A DNA stretch of 17,332 nt from Candidatus Thorarchaeota archaeon (GTDB lineage Archaea; Asgardarchaeota; Thorarchaeia; Thorarchaeales; Thorarchaeaceae): contig JAWAQK010000050.1 of NCBI GenBank assembly GCA_038893995.1, forward strand, positions 1 through 17,332, given 5' to 3'. The position numbers and the translations under genes are program-made. This document shows positions 1-13,251 of the stretch, in pieces. Numbering within the stretch: position 1 is the first letter of the stretch; every line of letters starts with the position of its first letter. The notes beneath the pieces were generated by a model. It searched no databases, was not told the origin of the DNA, and was given only the letters and a program-made list of their open reading frames with translations.

Positions 1-3
1 CAA

Positions 4-2751
4 GTGCTGAGCCCCATGCTCGCAGGACTGATGGCGACCAACGAACCGAGTCAGATGATACCCGTTGTGGTGAGGTTTGACGATGAGGCATCGAAAGACG
101 AAATGACCGAGATCCTGACCGGAATGAGAGCAGAGGGACTCAAGATCCGCCATGTTTTCCATCTGATACCCTTTGCATCGTTGTACGCATCAGCAGCAGC
201 AGTGTCCGAACTCATCAGTAACTGGAGAGTGAAATACATTGACATTGACCGAAGGGTTTCCATAAGTGAAACAGACCTCAGAAAAGTAGGTCCTGCAGAA
301 CTTGGCAGCACATCGTATGATCCTCCGCATGTCCTTCTCGGTGCTGAACAGATGTGGACCCTCGGATACAACGGCAGTGGCGTGACTATCGCCATTATTG
401 ACACCGGTGTCCAACCAGACCACCCAGACCTACAGGGACGAGTAGTGGCATTCAAGGACCTCGTAGGGGACAGGACCTTGCCTTACGACGACAACGGCCA
501 TGGAACCGCATGTGCGTGGCTCGCAGCAGGCACAGGTCAGGCAATGGGACGGGTGCTGAGTGGAACCGCACCCGGTGCCAGAATCATGGCAGTAAAGGTG
601 CTGGATAGCGAGGGATCCGGCGAGGATTCGGTCATAGCGCAGGGGATCGAGTACGCAGTTGACAACGGGGCCGATGTGATCAGCCTGAGTCTCGGAGGAC
701 CATGGTCTGACACCTACAACGATCCGACTGTGGCTGCTGCAGACGCTGCGGTCAGGGCAGGAGTGGTGGTAGTGGCTGCTGCGGGCAACGCAGGACCTGC
801 CGCCGCAACTGTCAACTCTCCGGGCGTGTCAGAGCTCTCCATCTGTGTGGGTGCATCAATGGGGTCGTTCGGTGTCGCGTCGTTCTCTGGCAGGGGGCCG
901 GTCGTCAGGACTGTCACGCCTCCTATCGGCGTTTCTGCAAGACCCGACCTGATCGCTCCTGGTTACAGGGTCGTATCGGGGAGGAGTACGACCGCCAACA
1001 TGGCAGAGTACCCGCTCTACAATCAGACACAATATGGATACCTTTACACCGTCTGGTCAGGCACATCTGTGTCAACGCCTCTTGTGGCCGGGCTTGCTGC
1101 ATTGCTAGTCGAGCGACATACCGGTATCTCACCTCTCGGAGTGAAGGTGTTTCTCATGGCCGGAGCCTCGGACCTGGGAGAAGATCCCATGGCTCAGGGA
1201 CATGGCATCGCTAATGTCAGCCGAGCCAGCGAGCTCTTACTGAGTTCGTCAGGAGCCTTCTCGGTAGTTTCACCCACTAGGTATCCGACAATTCCAGGCG
1301 GTCAGAACGTAGTCATAGTGGGGGATGAACGAGAGGACCAGTTGCTGACCGTCATCTCGACTGTCAACGTGAGTGACGTGGTCATTGGTGTCGAGGGTAA
1401 TGCGAGCAGACTGGTGACGGTCCCAGTCGGGCCCGTTGACATCATCGCCGGGTATAACTACGTCGAGATTGGCCTGAGAGTGCCAAGGAATACCACCCTA
1501 GATGAGATCGGCTCATACACAGGCGTGATCCGATTCACGCATGAGAACGTGACAGTAGTTTCAGTCGACCTATCAATCAGGCTACGAACATTCGGGGGGA
1601 GAGTCATCGTAGACCAGAGCCACCAGTCATCTGAAGACCCCGATGACCTCAAAGACTACAGGTATTTTGGCGATTACTTGCGTGAGCTAGGGATGAGAAT
1701 GGAGCCCTTCACCGGCGAGTCAAGTTCGGGCAGTATCACAAGCGACTCCCTGTCGTTGGCAGATGTATTGCTGATCATGGATACAGAGCTTGAGTACTCC
1801 GATTCCGAGATCCGTGCCATCCATGAGTTCGTCAATATGGGGGGAACACTACTGATGTTCTCTGAATACTACTCGGAGTCGGAGAACAAGGCCTACTTTT
1901 CGATGGAGTCCTACAACAGAATACTCGCTCCGTACGGAATACAATGCGAGACACGTGAGATAGGTCTGACACCTGAAGGATCAGGAATGGTTTACGGAGC
2001 CGACTACGGTGGGGCGGTGGAGACCCATCCCCTCGTCGAAGGAGTGCGGAACCTGTACGTCAATGCCGGTAGTACACTGAGCGTGGACTCATCAGTACCC
2101 GGTACGCAAGGACTCCTATGGACAGATGCCACAAGACAACATGCCATTGTAGCGATTGCTCAATCCGGAAAGGGACGGGTGGTGGTGATCTCAGACGGGT
2201 CGACAATGTACGACGAGAATCTGTTCTATGCAACTATCAGGGGTGCTGACAATGTCAGGCTGCTCCAGAACCTGGCATCCTTCGTCAGACCGGCGTGGCC
2301 CATCTTGTACGGGATCACCATTGGCCGGGGAGGATTGGAGAGACCTGCCAATGTGACTGCGTACGTCTTCGACGACGACCTATCCAATGTGACTATCACT
2401 GTTGAGCGGGGTGGAGTCATCATCGCCTCTGGACTGGCCGAGGAGGAACTGGGCTACAAGTTTGTGAAGACGTTCGACCAGACCGCACGGGGGTTTGTTG
2501 TGATCGAGTTGCGCGCCACAGACGACATGGGAAACATCAGGGTATTCAGGAGGATCGCACTGCTCACAGCTGAATTGGTTGATCCTGTAGTCCTCGCCCA
2601 AGTAGTAGCAGCCCTCTTGGGTGTACTGGCGGTCTCATTAGGTTATGTTGCAGTCCTGAAGATGAGGGGGCGTCCACGACATGAACCACAGAACGAGGCA
2701 GAGTGGGAGGTCCCCATAGACGACCGGCCACGACCACCCGAGATAGAGTAG
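4..2751 (+). CDS. Membrane-anchored S8 (subtilisin-family) serine protease with I9-like propeptide, GATase/GIFT(DUF4350)-like domain and C-terminal TM helix; Site-1 protease-like. Probably 5'-truncated by the window edge
   Basis: Catalytic motifs IIDTG (Asp), GHGT (His), AAGN (oxyanion Asn) and SGTSV (Ser). N-terminal propeptide-like segment (VVVRF...VKYIDIDRRV). Flavodoxin/GATase-like block VIVDQSH...DVLLIMD...FVNMGGTLLMFSE...GKGRVVVISDGS. Hydrophobic helix VVLAQVVAALLGVLAVSLGYVAVL followed by basic KMRGR. The frame is open to position 1 and no signal peptide is visible. Confidence 0.93.
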   Translation: MLSPMLAGLMATNEPSQMIPVVVRFDDEASKDEMTEILTGMRAEGLKIRHVFHLIPFASLYASAAAVSELISNWRVKYIDIDRRVSISETDLRKVGPAELGSTSYDPPHVLLGAEQMWTLGYNGSGVTIAIIDTGVQPDHPDLQGRVVAFKDLVGDRTLPYDDNGHGTACAWLAAGTGQAMGRVLSGTAPGARIMAVKVLDSEGSGEDSVIAQGIEYAVDNGADVISLSLGGPWSDTYNDPTVAAADAAVRAGVVVVAAAGNAGPAAATVNSPGVSELSICVGASMGSFGVASFSGRGPVVRTVTPPIGVSARPDLIAPGYRVVSGRSTTANMAEYPLYNQTQYGYLYTVWSGTSVSTPLVAGLAALLVERHTGISPLGVKVFLMAGASDLGEDPMAQGHGIANVSRASELLLSSSGAFSVVSPTRYPTIPGGQNVVIVGDEREDQLLTVISTVNVSDVVIGVEGNASRLVTVPVGPVDIIAGYNYVEIGLRVPRNTTLDEIGSYTGVIRFTHENVTVVSVDLSIRLRTFGGRVIVDQSHQSSEDPDDLKDYRYFGDYLRELGMRMEPFTGESSSGSITSDSLSLADVLLIMDTELEYSDSEIRAIHEFVNMGGTLLMFSEYYSESENKAYFSMESYNRILAPYGIQCETREIGLTPEGSGMVYGADYGGAVETHPLVEGVRNLYVNAGSTLSVDSSVPGTQGLLWTDATRQHAIVAIAQSGKGRVVVISDGSTMYDENLFYATIRGADNVRLLQNLASFVRPAWPILYGITIGRGGLERPANVTAYVFDDDLSNVTITVERGGVIIASGLAEEELGYKFVKTFDQTARGFVVIELRATDDMGNIRVFRRIALLTAELVDPVVLAQVVAALLGVLAVSLGYVAVLKMRGRPRHEPQNEAEWEVPIDDRPRPPEIE

Positions 2752-2790
2752 GCCGGCCAAGTGCGGCCTGTGGATACCCCTGGCGGAACA

Positions 2791-3756
2791 CTACTCACGA
2801 CGGCCGAAGCGTTGGGACAGTAGGACGTGTGAATACTTTACTAGGAGGACGCACAGGCCCACGACGAGGACTATCGTCAGGACGGGGAGATAGGACTGGA
2901 CCACATCGAGTGTGGCAAATTGAAGCTCTACCCGTCCGATAGTCCTGACCGTAGCTACAGCGTAGACATCGTAACTAGCCGGAGCAAGAGAGGCTGCACT
3001 CACACGAAATGAGTAGTTTCCGTCAACTCCGCTGATAGTCAGATTGACCCAAGCACCCTGCGGAGATCTGAAGCCCAGCTCCATTCTCTCGACGAGCATA
3101 TGTCCTTCTACTACAATCCTTCCAGTGATGATGGCGGTCATCAATAGTCCGACCGTGACCTCCGACTGATCGAGGACCGCCTCGACGAATCTGAAGACAC
3201 TACCTGTCAGGGACAGACCAATTGGGGGCAGGTCAAGTCCGACTCCAGAATCACAGACTCGAGCTAGTACACTGGCCATCTCGGTCCCGAGCTTATCAGA
3301 AGGGACCTCGTACTGTGGAGAAAACGTGTTGACATCAGATTCCGTGTCGATAACACGTAGAAGACCATCGACCAGTGACCAATTGAGAGACATCTCTTCG
3401 CTGGTACTATCGAGGTCGAAAATCTCTAGTTCCAGAGAAATGCTCGCCGTCCCGTGGGTCACCGACAGGTCTGACACTAGTACTCTCCACTGGTTGGAGA
3501 GAGTGATTTCCGAGGTAATGTCTTCGAGTTGGTCGTCTGTCGAGTAGGACACCAGAATCAGCCTCCCCCGCAGGGTAGAGGGCACTCGCTCCACCCACAT
3601 CAGGACCGAGTCCTCATCACTCCATGAGTCACTCCCCAGCGCGGATGGCTCAAAGTCGCTCCCGTTCCACATGAGCACAGTGGCTCCGCCGACCCCCACT
3701 CTCAAGATCAAATCGATGCCACTCGGTCCACTCGCCGGATCCATGTCTGCATCCAT
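2791..3756 (-). CDS. C-terminal part (beta-sandwich/Ig-like domains + TM anchor) of the frameshifted S8 protease
   Basis: The frame is open from 3810, just after the TGA at 3813-3811, and overlaps the upstream protease ORF. It has no signal peptide or evident SD of its own. It encodes beta-rich acidic extracellular-type sequence ending in TM LPVLTIVLVVGLCVLLV with a basic tail QRFGRRE. Confidence 0.75.
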   Translation of the reverse strand: MDADMDPASGPSGIDLILRVGVGGATVLMWNGSDFEPSALGSDSWSDEDSVLMWVERVPSTLRGRLILVSYSTDDQLEDITSEITLSNQWRVLVSDLSVTHGTASISLELEIFDLDSTSEEMSLNWSLVDGLLRVIDTESDVNTFSPQYEVPSDKLGTEMASVLARVCDSGVGLDLPPIGLSLTGSVFRFVEAVLDQSEVTVGLLMTAIITGRIVVEGHMLVERMELGFRSPQGAWVNLTISGVDGNYSFRVSAASLAPASYDVYAVATVRTIGRVELQFATLDVVQSYLPVLTIVLVVGLCVLLVKYSHVLLSQRFGRRE

Positions 3757-5911
3757 CAGGACATCGATATGAGATCCACCGGTCAGGTTGACAGCCCCCC
3801 TGACAGACCCTCACATACCTCATGTCCAGTCCTGCAGGGACGGAGAGGTCGACAGGGTCCTCGAGAATAGGAGTGATGCCGACCCATTCTGCCAGCCCGG
3901 ACGACACGTCCGGCGACAGTACCTGACGAACGGAGTAGAGAGCATCACACAGACCGTAACCCCAGGCATCGTCAGCGGGAAAGAAATGATGGTCTGAGCC
4001 TCCAGCACCCTGAAGTGTGGCCGTGAGGGGAAGCCATCCCCTTGAACGGGAGGCCTGAACGACAAGAGCCACAAGGCCTGCCACGTGCGGGCTGGCCATG
4101 CTAGTACCACTCTTGGCCTGCCACAATGTAGTGAGGGAGTTCTTGGCAGCCTGAATGGAAACACCTGGCGCACTCACGCCCACTTTCCACACTCCGTCCA
4201 CGCGGGGACCCAGCCCCGAGGATGATGCGATTCCCATGAGGAACTCGTCGTATGACGAAACTGCCACCACGAGGTCAGCCGTAGAGGGGGCACTCAGAGT
4301 CCTGGAGTTATCAACACTCGACGAGAACCGGAGGCTGCTCCCGGACCAACTGTTGTCCCAGACATACATGTTGACTTCGACACCATCACCCTGAGGATTG
4401 GACACTTTCACCAACCAAGTGCCGGTCTCCCACTGGTGGCCGGTCTTTCCAAGCTGAACTAGGATCTGGTTGGTGCCCCTCTGACTCCTGTCGGCAAACA
4501 CGTATGCCTTGAGTGAATCATGGGATATCTCGACTGCACTGCCAACGATGTTGCGAAAGATTCCCAGACTTATCTCTGACCCACCGGGGGTCTGGAGAAT
4601 GACCTCCTCATCGTCATCAATGCTCTGCCACAGGATGTTGAGGAAAGAGTAGAGTGGCGGTGAGATCACCGACAGGCCGGCTAGGCCAGTATGACCGGTC
4701 TCCACGCTAAGTCGGGCATGCTTACTCTGGCCACCCAGATTGCCAGCCGCAGCCACCACAACGGTCCGGTTCTGCAGCACAATCTGACTGATTGCCAGAT
4801 CCTCAACGTCAGTGCCATCAAGAAAACCCATGAAACTGGAGAAGGACAGGTTGATCACGTCAGCACCTTGGGCAACAGCAAATGCGAGACCGTCCAGGAT
4901 CTGTGCAGAAGTCAGCTGACTGCGGACAACGATGAGATCAGCATCTGGTGCCACCCCCAGCATTGACGTGTGACCCACCTGTCCGCCTGCGATGATCGAA
5001 CAGACATGAGTTCCATGCCCACCGGTGTCCAAGTCCCCTACCGACAGACCGTGAGTAGTAAGATTCACCCCTCGGACATATACAGCCTTGCTAACCTGGT
5101 CATAGAGTGCTGCGACCTTGGGTTCGCCGAGGAGGACAACGCCCTCGGTGGGGAGAGTCACCTGACCGTCTCCGTTGGTGTCAACTCCCGCCAACCAGCG
5201 GTCGCCATCGAGGTAGTCAAAGGCACCATCATTGTCAACATCTATGAACATGTATTCATTGGCAATCTCGATAGTGCTTGGACTGCTGACGTGCACAACA
5301 CGTATCGGTCCCTCTCCAGGATCCACAAATGAGTTGTTGTTGAGGTCGACGTAGAAGGATGAACCGTCCTGTATCACCTGCAGTTCGCCAGTGGTAACTC
5401 TCCAGAATGAGGGGTGCAACCAGTGGATCCCAGTGTCAATGACGGCGACCCTTGTACCGGTCCCCTGGACAGACCTGCTGTCCACACGAAGATTGTTCCA
5501 CACTTGAGGCGCCCTGATGAGCGGAACAGACGTCATCAGTGCTGGAAAGTACTGCTTGTCTCCCCGTGTCATTCTGACGACGTCTTTATCACCTAGGGCC
5601 TTCAACGCACATTCTGAGGACACTGACACCACATAGACAGACCCCAGGTGGACCGGAAGAGACCCACGTCTGAGAAACCTGATCCCCATCAACTCCAGAT
5701 CATCTATCTGTTGTGGAGATAGCTGTGTCGAGAACTGGACGATGAGGCTGCCATCAGGGTCCAGGTAGTCACATGGTCCGAGAGTCCCAGTCTTCACATC
5801 TGGACATTCCGATGACATGACAAGCGCTCTGTCGTATCTCTGGCCAAGAAGACTAGATGTCAGTACCACCCCAATCAGGAACAACGTCAGACAGAGAGGG
5901 AACCTCAACAT
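3650..5911 (-). CDS. Secreted S8 serine protease, N-terminal/catalytic part of a frameshifted gene (full gene 5911..2791)
   Basis: Likely start is ATG at 5911, preceded by GGAGG, giving signal peptide MLRFPLCLTLFLIGVVLTSSLLG. Motifs VIDTG, GHGTHV, AAGN and SGTSMASPHVAG. The ORF-track extension to 6202 overlaps the divergent gene and is rejected. The translation degrades after ...LDMRYVRVCQ (~3800). Confidence 0.88.
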   Translation of the reverse strand: MLRFPLCLTLFLIGVVLTSSLLGQRYDRALVMSSECPDVKTGTLGPCDYLDPDGSLIVQFSTQLSPQQIDDLELMGIRFLRRGSLPVHLGSVYVVSVSSECALKALGDKDVVRMTRGDKQYFPALMTSVPLIRAPQVWNNLRVDSRSVQGTGTRVAVIDTGIHWLHPSFWRVTTGELQVIQDGSSFYVDLNNNSFVDPGEGPIRVVHVSSPSTIEIANEYMFIDVDNDGAFDYLDGDRWLAGVDTNGDGQVTLPTEGVVLLGEPKVAALYDQVSKAVYVRGVNLTTHGLSVGDLDTGGHGTHVCSIIAGGQVGHTSMLGVAPDADLIVVRSQLTSAQILDGLAFAVAQGADVINLSFSSFMGFLDGTDVEDLAISQIVLQNRTVVVAAAGNLGGQSKHARLSVETGHTGLAGLSVISPPLYSFLNILWQSIDDDEEVILQTPGGSEISLGIFRNIVGSAVEISHDSLKAYVFADRSQRGTNQILVQLGKTGHQWETGTWLVKVSNPQGDGVEVNMYVWDNSWSGSSLRFSSSVDNSRTLSAPSTADLVVAVSSYDEFLMGIASSSGLGPRVDGVWKVGVSAPGVSIQAAKNSLTTLWQAKSGTSMASPHVAGLVALVVQASRSRGWLPLTATLQGAGGSDHHFFPADDAWGYGLCDALYSVRQVLSPDVSSGLAEWVGITPILEDPVDLSVPAGLDMRYVRVCQGGCQPDRWISYRCPDGCRHGSGEWTEWHRFDLESGGRRSHCAHVERERL

Positions 5912-6091
5912 GCAACCTCCAGCTGAGAGAACACGACTGAAAGCGGAATGACGCTCATATAGATTGCGTGATGTAAATCGCAGGATCGATCGACCGTGAA
6001 TGACCAGATCGGTCGAAACCACAAAAGGACATAAGCACGTTGCGCCAAATGACCTAGGTTGTCGTATCTTGAAATACGCCGGAGGATGTGA

Positions 6092-8095
6092 GTGGAGGAA
6101 GCTCCCCCAGAGTTCGACCGCTACTTGGCAGACGAGGACATACCATGGACTGAGATAGCCGTGGTGACAGCCAAGGCCAAACAGAGGGGGGCCAAGAACC
6201 ACTTTGAGGCATTCACAGATGCAGTAATAGAGATCGCATCGAAGGAGACCATGAAACCACAGCCCAACCCGAGCATCATCGCCATGGGTGTTGAGGCCTG
6301 CCTCATGCGCGGCAGACTGTCAGAGGCTCTGTTCATCTCCTCAGACGTGAATGACATCAGAGTAATGAGTCTAAGGGCAATCGTTCTCTTTGTCGTTTCG
6401 GACACCCAGGGGCTTGCCGAGCTACTATCGACTGCTGAGAGTCTTGTGAACGAGAACTCCGACACCGGACACAGGGTGAGGCTGAGCACCATAAAGGTCC
6501 TGGCCAGTGCGGCCGAGAGAGACACGAGTGTCATTCAATGTGTCATGGACTTCGACGCCCTGCTAGAGGCACATCCAGACCAGGCCGAGATACCGATGCC
6601 TGAGACCATGTTCACCATCTACGTCATCGGTGCACTTCTCAGAGAAACAGGGGAGATCAATCGAGCACTGAGGGTCGCCGACGTGCTTCAGGAGATGTCA
6701 GAGAAGCAGGGAAATAGGATGGTCAGGGCGCTAGTAGAGAACCTCAGGGGCAATATCTCGAACATTCAGGGCAATATCAAGGCCGCACGCGAACACTACA
6801 TGAGATTCAAGCAGATGAGCGAGGCAATGTCGTTCGACCTGGGAGTGGGTATGGCTCTGAACAACATGGGAGCATTAGCGCTCGCTGCACTCAGCCTAGA
6901 GGAGGCACTCGACTACTTCAAACAGGCACTTCAGTACATGACCATGGACACAGGCCGTCTGACAACGCTCGTGAATCTCGGGGAGGTCGCAGTGATACTC
7001 GGTCGATATGACGAGGCTGAACAGTATCTCAGGCAGGCCATGCGACTGGACGCGAAGACTGGCAAGGGGCTCGTTGAGGCATATGCGTGGTACGCCATCA
7101 TGCTCTCCAGAAAAGGAATGGTTGTTGAGGCGCAGAGGTGCCTCCGTCGAGTAGAGGCCATGGCGGAGAACTCCGAGAGGACTCTTAGCAAGGGTATCTA
7201 CCTCCTAGCAAAGGGAATACATGAGATGTGCAGCGGCCGCATTGAGCAGTCGATAGCAACACTGGAGAGTGCGGTCCGTTACGCCATGCACGAGTCACTT
7301 TTCGAGATCCTTGTACCAGCCGAATTGGAACTGGCCAGAAACCATGTGCAGGCGTATGCCAAGACACAGCACAGGGAGCATCTGATGAAGGCCATCCACA
7401 GGTTGGACGACGTCATCCAGATCGCTAAAGAGCAGAGCCTGCATGGGCTCTTTGCGGAATCATTGGTCTTGCGTAGCGATGTGCTCGTGCTTGCTGGGAA
7501 GGGGCTCGAGGCGAAGATGGAGTTGGAACGTGCAGCGGATGTCGCACGCCTGATCAATGACTCACGTCTGGAAACCGAGGCCGTGGAGAGGCTCAAGAGG
7601 TTCGCAGGTGAGGAACCTTCTGAGGACATGGTAGACCAGGGGAAACTCTCTGCATCGCTCGAACGTGTCTCTGCCTTCAGGACGGCCGGGGCTATGAAGG
7701 AGGTCCCCATGCCCCGCCTGATGTTGCTCCTCGTCCTGAACAGCAATTCAGGCTTGCACGAGTATACATACCGATTTGACCCCTCGATAGATCTTGACAG
7801 CTCGCTTGTCAGCAGCTTCATCTCAGCCATAACAACATTCTCCAGTCGCCTGGCAGGAGATGTCGGGCTGCTGAGGTCAATAAACCACGAGGGTCTGGCC
7901 CTGATGATAGAACACACTCAGGACAGGATGATTGCGCTTGTCGCACAGCATGAGTCTTTTGAGCTGAGGTATCGCCTCCAGCAGTTTGCGAAGGAGTTCG
8001 ACCTCGCGTACCCACCGAGGGATGATATTGAAGTGGTCAGACCAGGCGAGTTCAGCGATGCGGACAGGCTTGTTGAGAGGCTGTTTCTTAGCTGA
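6092..8095 (+). CDS. TPR-repeat protein with C-terminal longin-like domain
   Basis: GTG start with GGAGG at 6081-6085. TPR-type repeats (ALNNMGALA...EEALDYFKQAL; TLVNLGEVAVILGRYDEAEQYLRQA). C-terminal pattern LLLVLNSNSGLHEYTYRF-DSSLVSSFISAITTFSSRL-LRSINHEG-ALMIEH-IALVA-LRYRLQQFAKEF matches the beta-beta-alpha-beta-beta-beta-alpha longin/roadblock-related domains common in Asgard archaea. Confidence 0.85.
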   Translation: MEEAPPEFDRYLADEDIPWTEIAVVTAKAKQRGAKNHFEAFTDAVIEIASKETMKPQPNPSIIAMGVEACLMRGRLSEALFISSDVNDIRVMSLRAIVLFVVSDTQGLAELLSTAESLVNENSDTGHRVRLSTIKVLASAAERDTSVIQCVMDFDALLEAHPDQAEIPMPETMFTIYVIGALLRETGEINRALRVADVLQEMSEKQGNRMVRALVENLRGNISNIQGNIKAAREHYMRFKQMSEAMSFDLGVGMALNNMGALALAALSLEEALDYFKQALQYMTMDTGRLTTLVNLGEVAVILGRYDEAEQYLRQAMRLDAKTGKGLVEAYAWYAIMLSRKGMVVEAQRCLRRVEAMAENSERTLSKGIYLLAKGIHEMCSGRIEQSIATLESAVRYAMHESLFEILVPAELELARNHVQAYAKTQHREHLMKAIHRLDDVIQIAKEQSLHGLFAESLVLRSDVLVLAGKGLEAKMELERAADVARLINDSRLETEAVERLKRFAGEEPSEDMVDQGKLSASLERVSAFRTAGAMKEVPMPRLMLLLVLNSNSGLHEYTYRFDPSIDLDSSLVSSFISAITTFSSRLAGDVGLLRSINHEGLALMIEHTQDRMIALVAQHESFELRYRLQQFAKEFDLAYPPRDDIEVVRPGEFSDADRLVERLFLS

Positions 8096-8141
8096 ACTTA
8101 TCTGCAATCCGTGCCTGTATCAGGAAACGAGCAGATAGACA

Positions 8142-9809
8142 ATGGTATCGAGGAGTGATCTCGAGGTCCTCATAGGTAAAGGAGAGACTCGAAATGTCGA
8201 GTTCAAACAGACTCTGACAAGGGCGGACCTGAAAGCGGACAGGGCCCAGCGGCTCGTGACGAGATTCAGATACATGACCTGCGATCCGCCGTTTGAAGGC
8301 CGCCTGGTAATAGGGGTGGAGGACCTCGGAGGCAAGAGCTGGAGAGTGAGGGGACTGACTCGAAGGGGCCTCGAGACAGCTGAAGATGTACTGAAGACTC
8401 TCTGCGAGCAAGCCGGTCTTACAGTGGTTGAGAGGGAGCAGATTGAGACCGACCAGGGGCTTGTCGGCATCTACGTGATAAGCCCTGCGGACATGTTCGA
8501 GGTCAGACAGACGTGCTCAATCAACGTGGCTGGAAGGGTCAATTCGGGTAAGTCTACTCTTGTGGGATCACTGGTGACTGGAAGACCTGACAATGGCAGC
8601 GGAAGGGCAAGATCATTTCTACTCACCCATCCCCAGGAGATCGTAAAGGGTCAGACGGCGGACATCCATCTCGCATTCATGGGCTTCACGGCGGATGGTA
8701 GTCGCGTACATATCGAGAATCCTCTCAATCGACAAGAGGCTGCAATGGCTCTGGATCGGTCAGCGAAGATAATCACCTTCTTCGATGCACCCGGGCACCA
8801 AGAGTTCAGCAAGACAATGATACGGAGTATTCTCGGGTCAGATGCCCAGTACGGGATGGTACTGATACCAGTGCCGGACGAGGCCGAACTCGTGCTAGGT
8901 GAGGAAAGTAGGACTGGGACGCGGCGACTTGACGACATAACCAGAGAGCATATCATCCTCATGGTGGGCCGCAGAGTTCCGTTCATGATTCTGTTGTCAA
9001 TGGTCGATCGTGCCACGCACGAGTACGTTGAGCTTGTGCTCGGGGTCGTCCGCGAGACCGTGAAAGAGACCGGCCGGATTCCGGTACTTGTCCGGACGTG
9101 GGACGATGCGCAGCCTGTGCTGAGAGAGATGCCAAACGGTGCAATAGTACCCATAATTCCGGTATCGGCAGTCGATATGCAGTCTCTCGATCTTCTCACC
9201 CGCATCCTGAGGGATCTGCCAATCGATACATCCTCAACAGACGTGTCCTCTCCGGCGTTTGCGTACATCGACAAGGTGTATCGTGGTGTCAGGGGTACGA
9301 ACATCGTCGTGACTGGAACGGTGAAACAGGGAGTATTCAAACGCGGCCAGATGGTGCAGATTGGACCTGATGAGAACGGGCAGATGATGGAGGGGCGGCT
9401 GTTCAGCATAGAGGTATTCAAGAGGAGGGTCTCAGCGGTAAAGGTCGGAGATCTGTTTGGATTCGACATAAAGGATGTGGACAAACATAGGATCCGTCGT
9501 GGCCAGGTCGTCATGGATGTCGACGGAAATGCCCCCAACAGTGTCAGGACCATCGAGGCAAACATAGTTGTCACAAGGCATCCTACTCGTATCGTAGAGG
9601 GGTACACGCCCGTACTCCAGTGCCATACCATCCAGCAACCAGTTGTGCTCAAGAAGATATACGACCGTGACTACCTCGCAGTCGGAGACTTCGCCAGAGT
9701 CAGGCTGGAATTCATGTTGCGCCCGGAGATAGTGAATGTGAACGACAAGATTGTCCTGAGGGAGGCCAACACACGAGCCATAGGCACAGTCGTCGAGATC
9801 GTTAGATGA
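8142..9809 (+). CDS. GTPBP1/2-family translational GTPase (archaeal COG5258 type) with N-terminal AlbA_2/Schlafen-like domain and EF-Tu-like domains II and III
   Basis: G1 AGRVNSGKST; GTPBP-typical DNGSGRAR..LLTHPQEI.KGQTAD; G3 FDAPGH; G5 VSAV. Domain II (IDKVY.GV.GT..VVTGTVKQG) and domain III (HPTRIVEGYTPVLQCHTI...GDFARVRLEF...LREANTRAIG). N-terminal GETRNVEFK...LVIGVED. Confidence 0.9.
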   Translation: MVSRSDLEVLIGKGETRNVEFKQTLTRADLKADRAQRLVTRFRYMTCDPPFEGRLVIGVEDLGGKSWRVRGLTRRGLETAEDVLKTLCEQAGLTVVEREQIETDQGLVGIYVISPADMFEVRQTCSINVAGRVNSGKSTLVGSLVTGRPDNGSGRARSFLLTHPQEIVKGQTADIHLAFMGFTADGSRVHIENPLNRQEAAMALDRSAKIITFFDAPGHQEFSKTMIRSILGSDAQYGMVLIPVPDEAELVLGEESRTGTRRLDDITREHIILMVGRRVPFMILLSMVDRATHEYVELVLGVVRETVKETGRIPVLVRTWDDAQPVLREMPNGAIVPIIPVSAVDMQSLDLLTRILRDLPIDTSSTDVSSPAFAYIDKVYRGVRGTNIVVTGTVKQGVFKRGQMVQIGPDENGQMMEGRLFSIEVFKRRVSAVKVGDLFGFDIKDVDKHRIRRGQVVMDVDGNAPNSVRTIEANIVVTRHPTRIVEGYTPVLQCHTIQQPVVLKKIYDRDYLAVGDFARVRLEFMLRPEIVNVNDKIVLREANTRAIGTVVEIVR

Positions 9810-12336: not shown

Positions 12337-13251
12337 TCACTTCCTCTTGCCTTTCTTAGTCGAGGCCGACCTCTGTTCCAGTCCGGACACCCTGCGCACT
12401 GCAAGGACTAGGAGCGATGAGAGTTCGGGATCACTCTTCTTGGAACCCGCTCCACTCCAACCTCCATCGCTGTTCTGAGTACCTATCACGAGTGCGATTC
12501 CCTGATCGACCACGCTCCGCTCGGCATCGGTCTTGATCTCGTCTATTGAGGCGAGGTCGACCATGTCATAGGTCCAACTGCGATTGACAGAGTCTTTGAG
12601 ATGTTGAAACAGGGCCGCTCTGGCACTCTGATATGCCCTATGTTCTGGGTTGATTCCGACAGCCCTCAGGGCAGGGAGAATGTTGCCCGTCCCCAAGGGA
12701 TCAGACACCGGAGCACCCTTGAAGGCAGGCCAGTGACCGTCCTCGTGCTGCGTGTACAAGAGGAAGTCACGGCCACGGCTGATCCGCTCCTCGTCCTTGA
12801 AACCGGCCAAGACGAGGGCCTCAAGAGCCTTCCCAGTGAGCCAGGTTATGCTCTTACCGACAGGATACCATTCTGACGTGCTCGAGGACCCGTAACGGTC
12901 CTCAATCAGTGTCCTCAGATTCAGTGTTTCTGCAAAGCCCCCATCACCCTTCTGCCGAGAAACCAGAAAGGAGACCATCCTGTCTACAATATCCTGTGGG
13001 CGATCTCTTATGTCAAGGAGGAGCACTAGGATCTCAGATGTCTCTTTCACTGAACTCGGATTGCCCCTCGTTAGAGCAAAAGGAAGACCGCCGTCGTCGT
13101 TGATGATCGTTCGCAGATGAGTGAACGCTTGCTCCAACACACTCGGGGCAAGATGGAACCCAGCAGAGTGCAGCCGGAGCTTGTCGGCAATGCTACCCTG
13201 CGACTCTATGAATGACTTGACATCATACAAGAAATCAGCACTTCTGGACAA
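12337..13251 (-). CDS. Prenyltransferase/squalene-cyclase (QW-repeat) alpha-barrel protein
   Basis: TTG start with upstream GGAGG. Four QW-type repeats: INDDGGL, LVSRQKGDGGF, LLYTQHEDGHW and IGTQNSDGGW. Confidence 0.85.
   Translation of the reverse strand: MSRSADFLYDVKSFIESQGSIADKLRLHSAGFHLAPSVLEQAFTHLRTIINDDGGLPFALTRGNPSSVKETSEILVLLLDIRDRPQDIVDRMVSFLVSRQKGDGGFAETLNLRTLIEDRYGSSSTSEWYPVGKSITWLTGKALEALVLAGFKDEERISRGRDFLLYTQHEDGHWPAFKGAPVSDPLGTGNILPALRAVGINPEHRAYQSARAALFQHLKDSVNRSWTYDMVDLASIDEIKTDAERSVVDQGIALVIGTQNSDGGWSGAGSKKSDPELSSLLVLAVRRVSGLEQRSASTKKGKRK

Follow-up and report, generated by a model that had tools for sequence, protein, structure and literature searches.

Gene and domain layout

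The window, meaning the whole 17,332-nucleotide stretch of a Candidatus Thorarchaeota contig analysed here, opens with a single open reading frame that runs off the contig start (Table 1). Because this frame is open at the contig end, the GTG at position 4 was rejected as the start codon; orthologs are longer N-terminally (about 960 residues, with a hydrophobic segment at the N-terminus), and compared to them about 45 N-terminal residues, including the hydrophobic signal segment, are missing here. In the AlphaFold model of the encoded protein (pLDDT 87), the propeptide is followed by a loose linker, the S8 domain, a beta-sandwich, a GIFT domain, an Ig-like domain, one transmembrane (TM) helix and a 28-residue tail. 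We located in the frame every element named in the original prediction (propeptide, S8 domain, beta-sandwich, GATase/GIFT domain, one C-terminal TM and a short tail), but the Ig-like domain between GIFT and the TM had been overlooked. The latter has no good match in Pfam, and no counterpart was found in eukaryotic site-1 protease (S1P), the structural alignment to which stops at residue 765. In 71 of 76 orthologs, the tail closes with Trp followed by a C-terminal Pro-x-Ile-x; a role as a general sorting signal was rejected, since among the membrane proteins of the source genome caught by the pattern no other carries it at its end.

Table 1. Features of the protease gene, with positions in the window
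Feature	Position	Strand	Details
Gene, membrane-anchored S8-sandwich-GIFT-Ig subtilase	1..2751	+	5' end open at contig edge
Propeptide, Tk-SP N-propeptide-like, residues 1-90	4..273	+	Weak match to Pfam PF18237 (E = 0.005); aligns with pro-Tk-SP (3afg) from residue 1
Low-confidence linker, residues 92-103	277..312	+	pLDDT <50; likely autoprocessing region; no conserved RxxL
S8 catalytic domain	316..1239	+	Asp133 400-402, His166 499-501, Asn262 787-789, Ser355 1066-1068
Beta-sandwich at the position of the S1P P-like domain, residues ~416-528	1249..1587	+	AlphaFold model and alignment to S1P
GIFT/GATase-like domain, residues ~529-768	1588..2307	+	DUF4350, 32.7 bits, above cut-off; lacks the S1P-specific 20-residue insertion
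Extra Ig-like beta domain, residues 767-855	2302..2568	+	Seven strands in the model
Single transmembrane helix, type I anchor	2584..2664	+	Helix 861-887 in the model; hydropathy peak from 867
Cytoplasmic tail	2665..2748	+	Basic patch, then conserved Trp901, Pro912 and Ile914 at the extreme end

Comparison of the protein core with eukaryotic S1P

The closest known system is S1P (MBTPS1/SKI-1; PDB 8UW8, 8UWC and 9CSD; Pfam PF23001, PF00082, PF23094 and PF23090), a protease of eukaryotic cholesterol and stress signalling, of which the protein had been predicted to be an archaeal homolog. Both proteins have, in identical order, propeptide, S8, sandwich, GIFT and a single C-terminal TM with a short cytosolic tail, and they run collinear for about 600 residues; the window protein differs in carrying the extra Ig-like domain before the TM. 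Human S1P was the best Foldseek match in the PDB for the full model (E = 1.5 × 10−42) and also the best match for the non-catalytic part (E = 2.9 × 10−15), and a VIA alignment placed model residues 105-765 on S1P residues 190-874 (595 residues, Z = 40.4, rmsd 7.5). An ESM feature search returned the protein's own cluster first, followed by nine eukaryotic MBTPS1 clusters at ~0.94. A profile built from 41 family members aligned to human S1P in one stretch (positions 3-629 of 656, 283 bits), continuously and without domain-sized gaps, and the human S1P segments cited in the original prediction match the actual human sequence and align where they had been placed.

Identity to S1P is about 20-24%, and the window protein misses all MBTPS1 Pfam cut-offs, with no match at E 0.1 to either PF23094 (MBTPS1_3rd) or PF23001 (N-domain). 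No protein in 301 Asgard genomes scored above the PF23094 cut-off; some Asgard relatives narrowly exceed that of PF23090. For testing, eukaryotic S1P genes were fetched from metagenomes by a short motif pattern, and the one checked gave MBTPS1 model scores of 457 (456.6 for PF23090), 187 and 57 bits. The predicted homology stands for the three-domain core, whereas the missed cut-offs, the missing GIFT insertion and Gln282, and the lack of a conserved RxxL junction (see below) speak against the rest: the window protein is not an S1P, although its three-domain core probably shares descent with S1P. Alternatively, S8, Ig-like sandwich and GIFT domains, all widespread extracellular modules, could have come together once in Asgard archaea and once more in the eukaryotic stem, in which case the likeness would be silent on descent. 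Such convergent assembly appears unlikely to us. It is favored by bacterial precedent for part of the build, as Bacillus Vpr and Streptomyces-type S8 + Ig-like proteases have S8 and then a beta-sandwich, as in the window protein (they lack a GIFT domain, however, and Vpr has a domain inserted within S8), whereas the single continuous alignment argues against it.

GIFT domain

Residues 529-768 share their fold with GIFT, DUF4350, IFT52 and OST48 domains. The domain scores above the PF14258/DUF4350 cut-off and has a class I GATase-like fold; on MBTPS1_4th (PF23090) it reaches 20.1 bits, below the 27-bit cut-off. As a single sequence, it did not match human S1P significantly (E = 0.57), and the GIFT family profile matched S1P with E = 3 × 10−12 and IFT52, at a higher score, with E = 6 × 10−21. 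The profile-profile match to S1P had a probability of 99.5, and fold comparison gave Z = 21.7 for IFT52, 19.2 for OST48 and 18.2 for S1P. The domain is homologous to the S1P GIFT domain yet nearer to IFT52, so that the expected special closeness to S1P does not extend to GIFT taken alone. In the window protein, the GIFT domain is fused behind an active S8 domain and a sandwich, which among solved structures is the case only in S1P, the only proprotein convertase with a GIFT domain (PMC11231238). The S1P GIFT domain further contains an insertion of about 20 residues after the first strand, invariant in S1P, that corresponds to a gap in the window protein; the insertion motif was found in at least 120 metagenome stretches and in 0 of 185,579 prokaryote genomes.

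Several properties of GIFT domains are compatible with separate assembly. They are abundant and mobile in Asgard archaea, S8-linked and stand-alone GIFT domains intermingle in the GIFT tree, and the protein that scores highest on the S1P GIFT profile has no S8 domain. Conversely, S8-linked GIFT domains outscore stand-alone ones on this profile (median 9.9 vs. 6.0 bits, from kin that are not independent).

Sandwich domain and the S1P glycan site

In S1P, Asn515 carries a structural glycan that lies between the S8 and P-like domains, stacked on Tyr561 (PMC11231238). The column of Asn515 holds a sequon in 65 of 76 orthologs, in 11 of 11 S1Ps and, in a broad set, in 16 of 56 archaeal rows; Gly-Tyr occupies the columns of S1P 560-561 in 72 of 76 orthologs. 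The window protein retains the latter pair, with Gly483-Tyr484 (1450-1455) aligned to S1P Gly560-Tyr561, but its own copy has lost the Asn, with Leu447 (1342-1344) in the Asn515 column. It contains nine sequons, compared to a family median of 11. Because the sandwich domain by itself does not match S1P significantly in sequence (probability 2%), the apparent glycan-site correspondence rests on the collinear alignment. Read in this way, the match of both sequon and stacking Tyr argues against convergence.

Catalytic domain and cleavage specificity

The S8 domain (Pfam PF00082, 169.5 bits) shares with S1P the catalytic triad and the oxyanion Asn, and Asp133, His166, Asn262 and Ser355 are invariant across the 76 orthologs. 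We consider it very likely that the window protein is an active anchored subtilase. Its S8 domain is nearest to Tk-SP (291 bits vs. 141 bits for S1P). This Thermococcus kodakarensis protease (PDB 3AFG, 9UES) is also the closest solved catalytic domain (210 bits, Z = 47) and has a similar propeptide, but its alignment stops near residue 521, and the matched part contains neither a GIFT domain nor a TM anchor.

Comparison of specificity-related positions shows that Gly204 occupies the column of S1P Gln282 and Val210 that of Trp288, where Gln and Trp, respectively, are found in 15 of 15 S1Ps. Asp218, Gln282 and Ser307 form the S1P S4 pocket for P4-Arg (PMC11231238); the pocket Asp and Ser are generic to subtilases, and Gln282 is the residue absent in the window protein. 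Among 60 S1P-diagnostic S8 residues, the window protein has 4, against a prokaryotic mean of 4.6. A loose RxxL-like match at the propeptide junction occurs in 22 of 76 orthologs and so is not conserved. The SGTSV motif, originally taken as an S1P-like trait, proved incidental, as at least 61 of 76 orthologs have Ala after the catalytic Ser and Val is a minority state. Judging from these residues, cleavage would be subtilisin-like in specificity and not RxxL-directed.

These observations bear on the proposal that the protein performs the luminal first cut of regulated intramembrane proteolysis, i.e., that it is a functional forerunner of S1P that cuts membrane-tethered regulators outside at RxxL-like sites before an M50 protease makes the second cut. 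The architecture with its type I anchor, the single-copy core status of the gene, the conserved cytoplasmic tail and the presence of three M50 genes in the genome are in keeping with this role; however, M50 genes are universal (14 of 14 control genomes) and lend it no support, the S1P specificity residues, the conserved RxxL junction and the prokaryotic occurrence of the GIFT insertion are all missing, and no candidate substrate turned up, with no bHLH or bZIP protein above the cut-off (weak negatives). We regard this role as highly improbable. SREBP/ATF6-type signalling in archaea is not demonstrated by the existence of the family.

Distribution and paralogs

Named homologs of the window protein come from Thorarchaeota. 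Of 23 good Thorarchaeia genomes, 22 carry exactly one copy of the gene, and it is likewise single-copy in all 16 genera of the family. When 1.84 billion representatives were searched with a profile, a wider family sharing this core emerged; its members are labelled Asgardarchaeia, Odinarchaeia, Ranarchaeia, Hel-, Loki- and Heimdallarchaeota, and one further cluster bears the TACK label Bathyarchaeia/Nitrososphaerota. No bacterial protein with the three-domain core turned up in a thin sampling of bacteria and non-Asgard archaea, and no plasmid record spans 80% of the core. A search of GTDB and viral contigs for S1P motifs yielded only one protein, a Nanoarchaeota S8 protease (L174:1726-4647, +), the sole relative among prokaryotes that the S1P helix motif picked up; this protease lacks a GIFT domain and does not group with S1P. 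The sandwich-GIFT profile had no match in 151 genomes of the same phylum, in a search run without a positive control.

The source genome encodes at least seven S8-type genes. Three further S8-GIFT paralogs lie in this genome, all on the minus strand (G000:C14:36784-38943, C9:5337-7361 and C4:65932-70245), the last of which looks inactive, its His and Ser motifs being absent by pattern. Elsewhere in Asgard archaea, a subfamily of 807-818 residues (L044:2001-4454, +; P0148), in which the TM helix directly follows GIFT, has the overall layout closest to S1P and is among the top scorers on the S1P profile. Several members of the Asgard family (P0113, P0115, P0123 and P0137) end, after the TM, with a cytoplasmic zinc-ribbon-like Cys motif.

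Phylogenetic analysis and the origin of S1P

We compared an S8 tree (114 rows, 291 columns, LG+C20 PMSF, bootstrap not fully settled) with a three-domain tree (67 rows, 599 columns), both built without human S1P, Tk-SP, pyrolysin and kexin. In the S8 tree, S1P forms one clade (100/99), and the Thorarchaeia subfamily lies inside its own 13-member Asgard clade (100/96); in none of the trees is the window protein the sister of S1P. S8-GIFT proteins do not form one clade in the S8 tree, as could be expected under convergence, whereas the supported sister of S1P is itself an Asgard S8-sandwich-GIFT protein (99/95), which argues against it. Encoded by an open frame of 2586 residues, this hot-spring protein (L222:3999-11756, +; G029:C2, family f15) combines S8, sandwich and GIFT with a long stalk; a Trp-containing helix motif and a Val following the catalytic Ser are common to it and S1P. 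The three-domain tree, in which the attachment of S1P is unsettled, does not recover this pairing, nor does the GIFT tree. We rejected the protein as a firm S1P sister, as its support is confined to the S8 tree, both branches are long, it has 9 of the 60 S1P-diagnostic residues (up to 13 in others), and a search of 400 Asgard genomes at a strict cut-off yielded no close relative.

AU tests rejected neither a grouping of S1P with the Thorarchaeia clade (p = 0.24 for S8, p = 0.35 for three domains) nor one with a bacterial clade (p = 0.23), the latter again leaving room for convergence. The anticipated placement of the S8 domain with S1P is not seen in the best trees, its nearest match being Tk-SP, although a link is not rejected. 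The trees are compatible with descent but do not establish it, and they offer no grounds for giving the window gene special weight; that the Thorarchaeia subfamily is the direct sister of S1P appears quite unlikely. The G029:C2 protein is the best lead on the origin of S1P and, rather than the Thorarchaeia gene, may be its closest living relative.

Taken together, the likeness of the three-domain core points to an archaeal origin of the S1P build. We give even odds to the more specific scenario in which eukaryotes took over S1P from their Asgard host as an already assembled, glycosylated S8-sandwich-GIFT membrane protease, including the Asn515 site, with RxxL specificity, the GIFT insertion and the cofactor SPRING added later, the family then being an undescribed eukaryotic signature protein. 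The 'signature' label is not yet earned because bacteria and non-Asgard archaea are thinly sampled. An Asgard-wide family with the S1P core is a concrete candidate source of S1P; it divides S1P into old parts (the domain build and probably the glycan site) and new ones (the RxxL pocket, the GIFT insertion and SPRING), and provides a presumably cofactor-free model for probing the role of GIFT. The GIFT domain of S1P was already known (PMC11231238); new here are the test against real S1P sequences, the apparent glycan-site match, the core-gene status and a better candidate sister. A literature search that took in few subscription papers returned nothing relevant on S1P in Asgard archaea or on Asgard S8 peptidases and proprotein convertases, and no paper on the evolutionary source of S1P.

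Probable function and genomic neighborhood

We tend to favor a housekeeping cell-surface serine protease of Thorarchaeia, whose catalytic-sandwich-GIFT core comes from the same archaeal family as eukaryotic S1P. The protein would be exported via the signal segment, held by one predicted C-terminal helix and, given the conserved sequons, N-glycosylated. By analogy with subtilases, the propeptide would aid folding and then be self-cleaved in the 92-103 linker. Catalysis would proceed through Asp133-His166-Ser355 with subtilisin-like specificity, and GIFT probably braces the oxyanion loops and restricts access to the active site, as in S1P (PMC11231238). The likely job is trimming or turnover of surface glycoproteins and extracellular protein, with no transcription-factor release.

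A related possibility, which we consider somewhat unlikely, is that the protease has a purely nutritional role, breaking down external protein for uptake and using GIFT to bind glycan or substrate. Thorarchaeia probably live partly on peptides, and the subtilisin-like pocket, the number of S8-type genes in the genome and the clustering with other proteases at three orthologous loci (L229-L231), where the gene lies beside a second anchored S8 protease and TldD/PmbA, and no M50 gene is present, would all fit; strict single-copy retention and the conserved tail, however, suggest a fixed cellular role. This reading differs from the housekeeping one, which the protease neighborhood without M50 genes supports as well, in substrate only and is compatible with common descent.

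Compared with window positions 2751-6200, these loci carry a flavin oxidoreductase and a TldD/PmbA pair, which are not evident in the window. The neighboring second S8 protease of the window is split into two minus-strand frames (2791-3756 and 3650-6202) near 3760-3810; the two pieces correspond to residues 60-708 and 738-1053 of an ortholog that is intact and 1055 residues long. The split may be a lesion or an assembly error. Further along, the window encodes a TPR protein followed by an EF-Tu-like GTPase (6092-9809, +) and a protein with squalene-hopene cyclase/prenyltransferase repeats (12337-13251, −).
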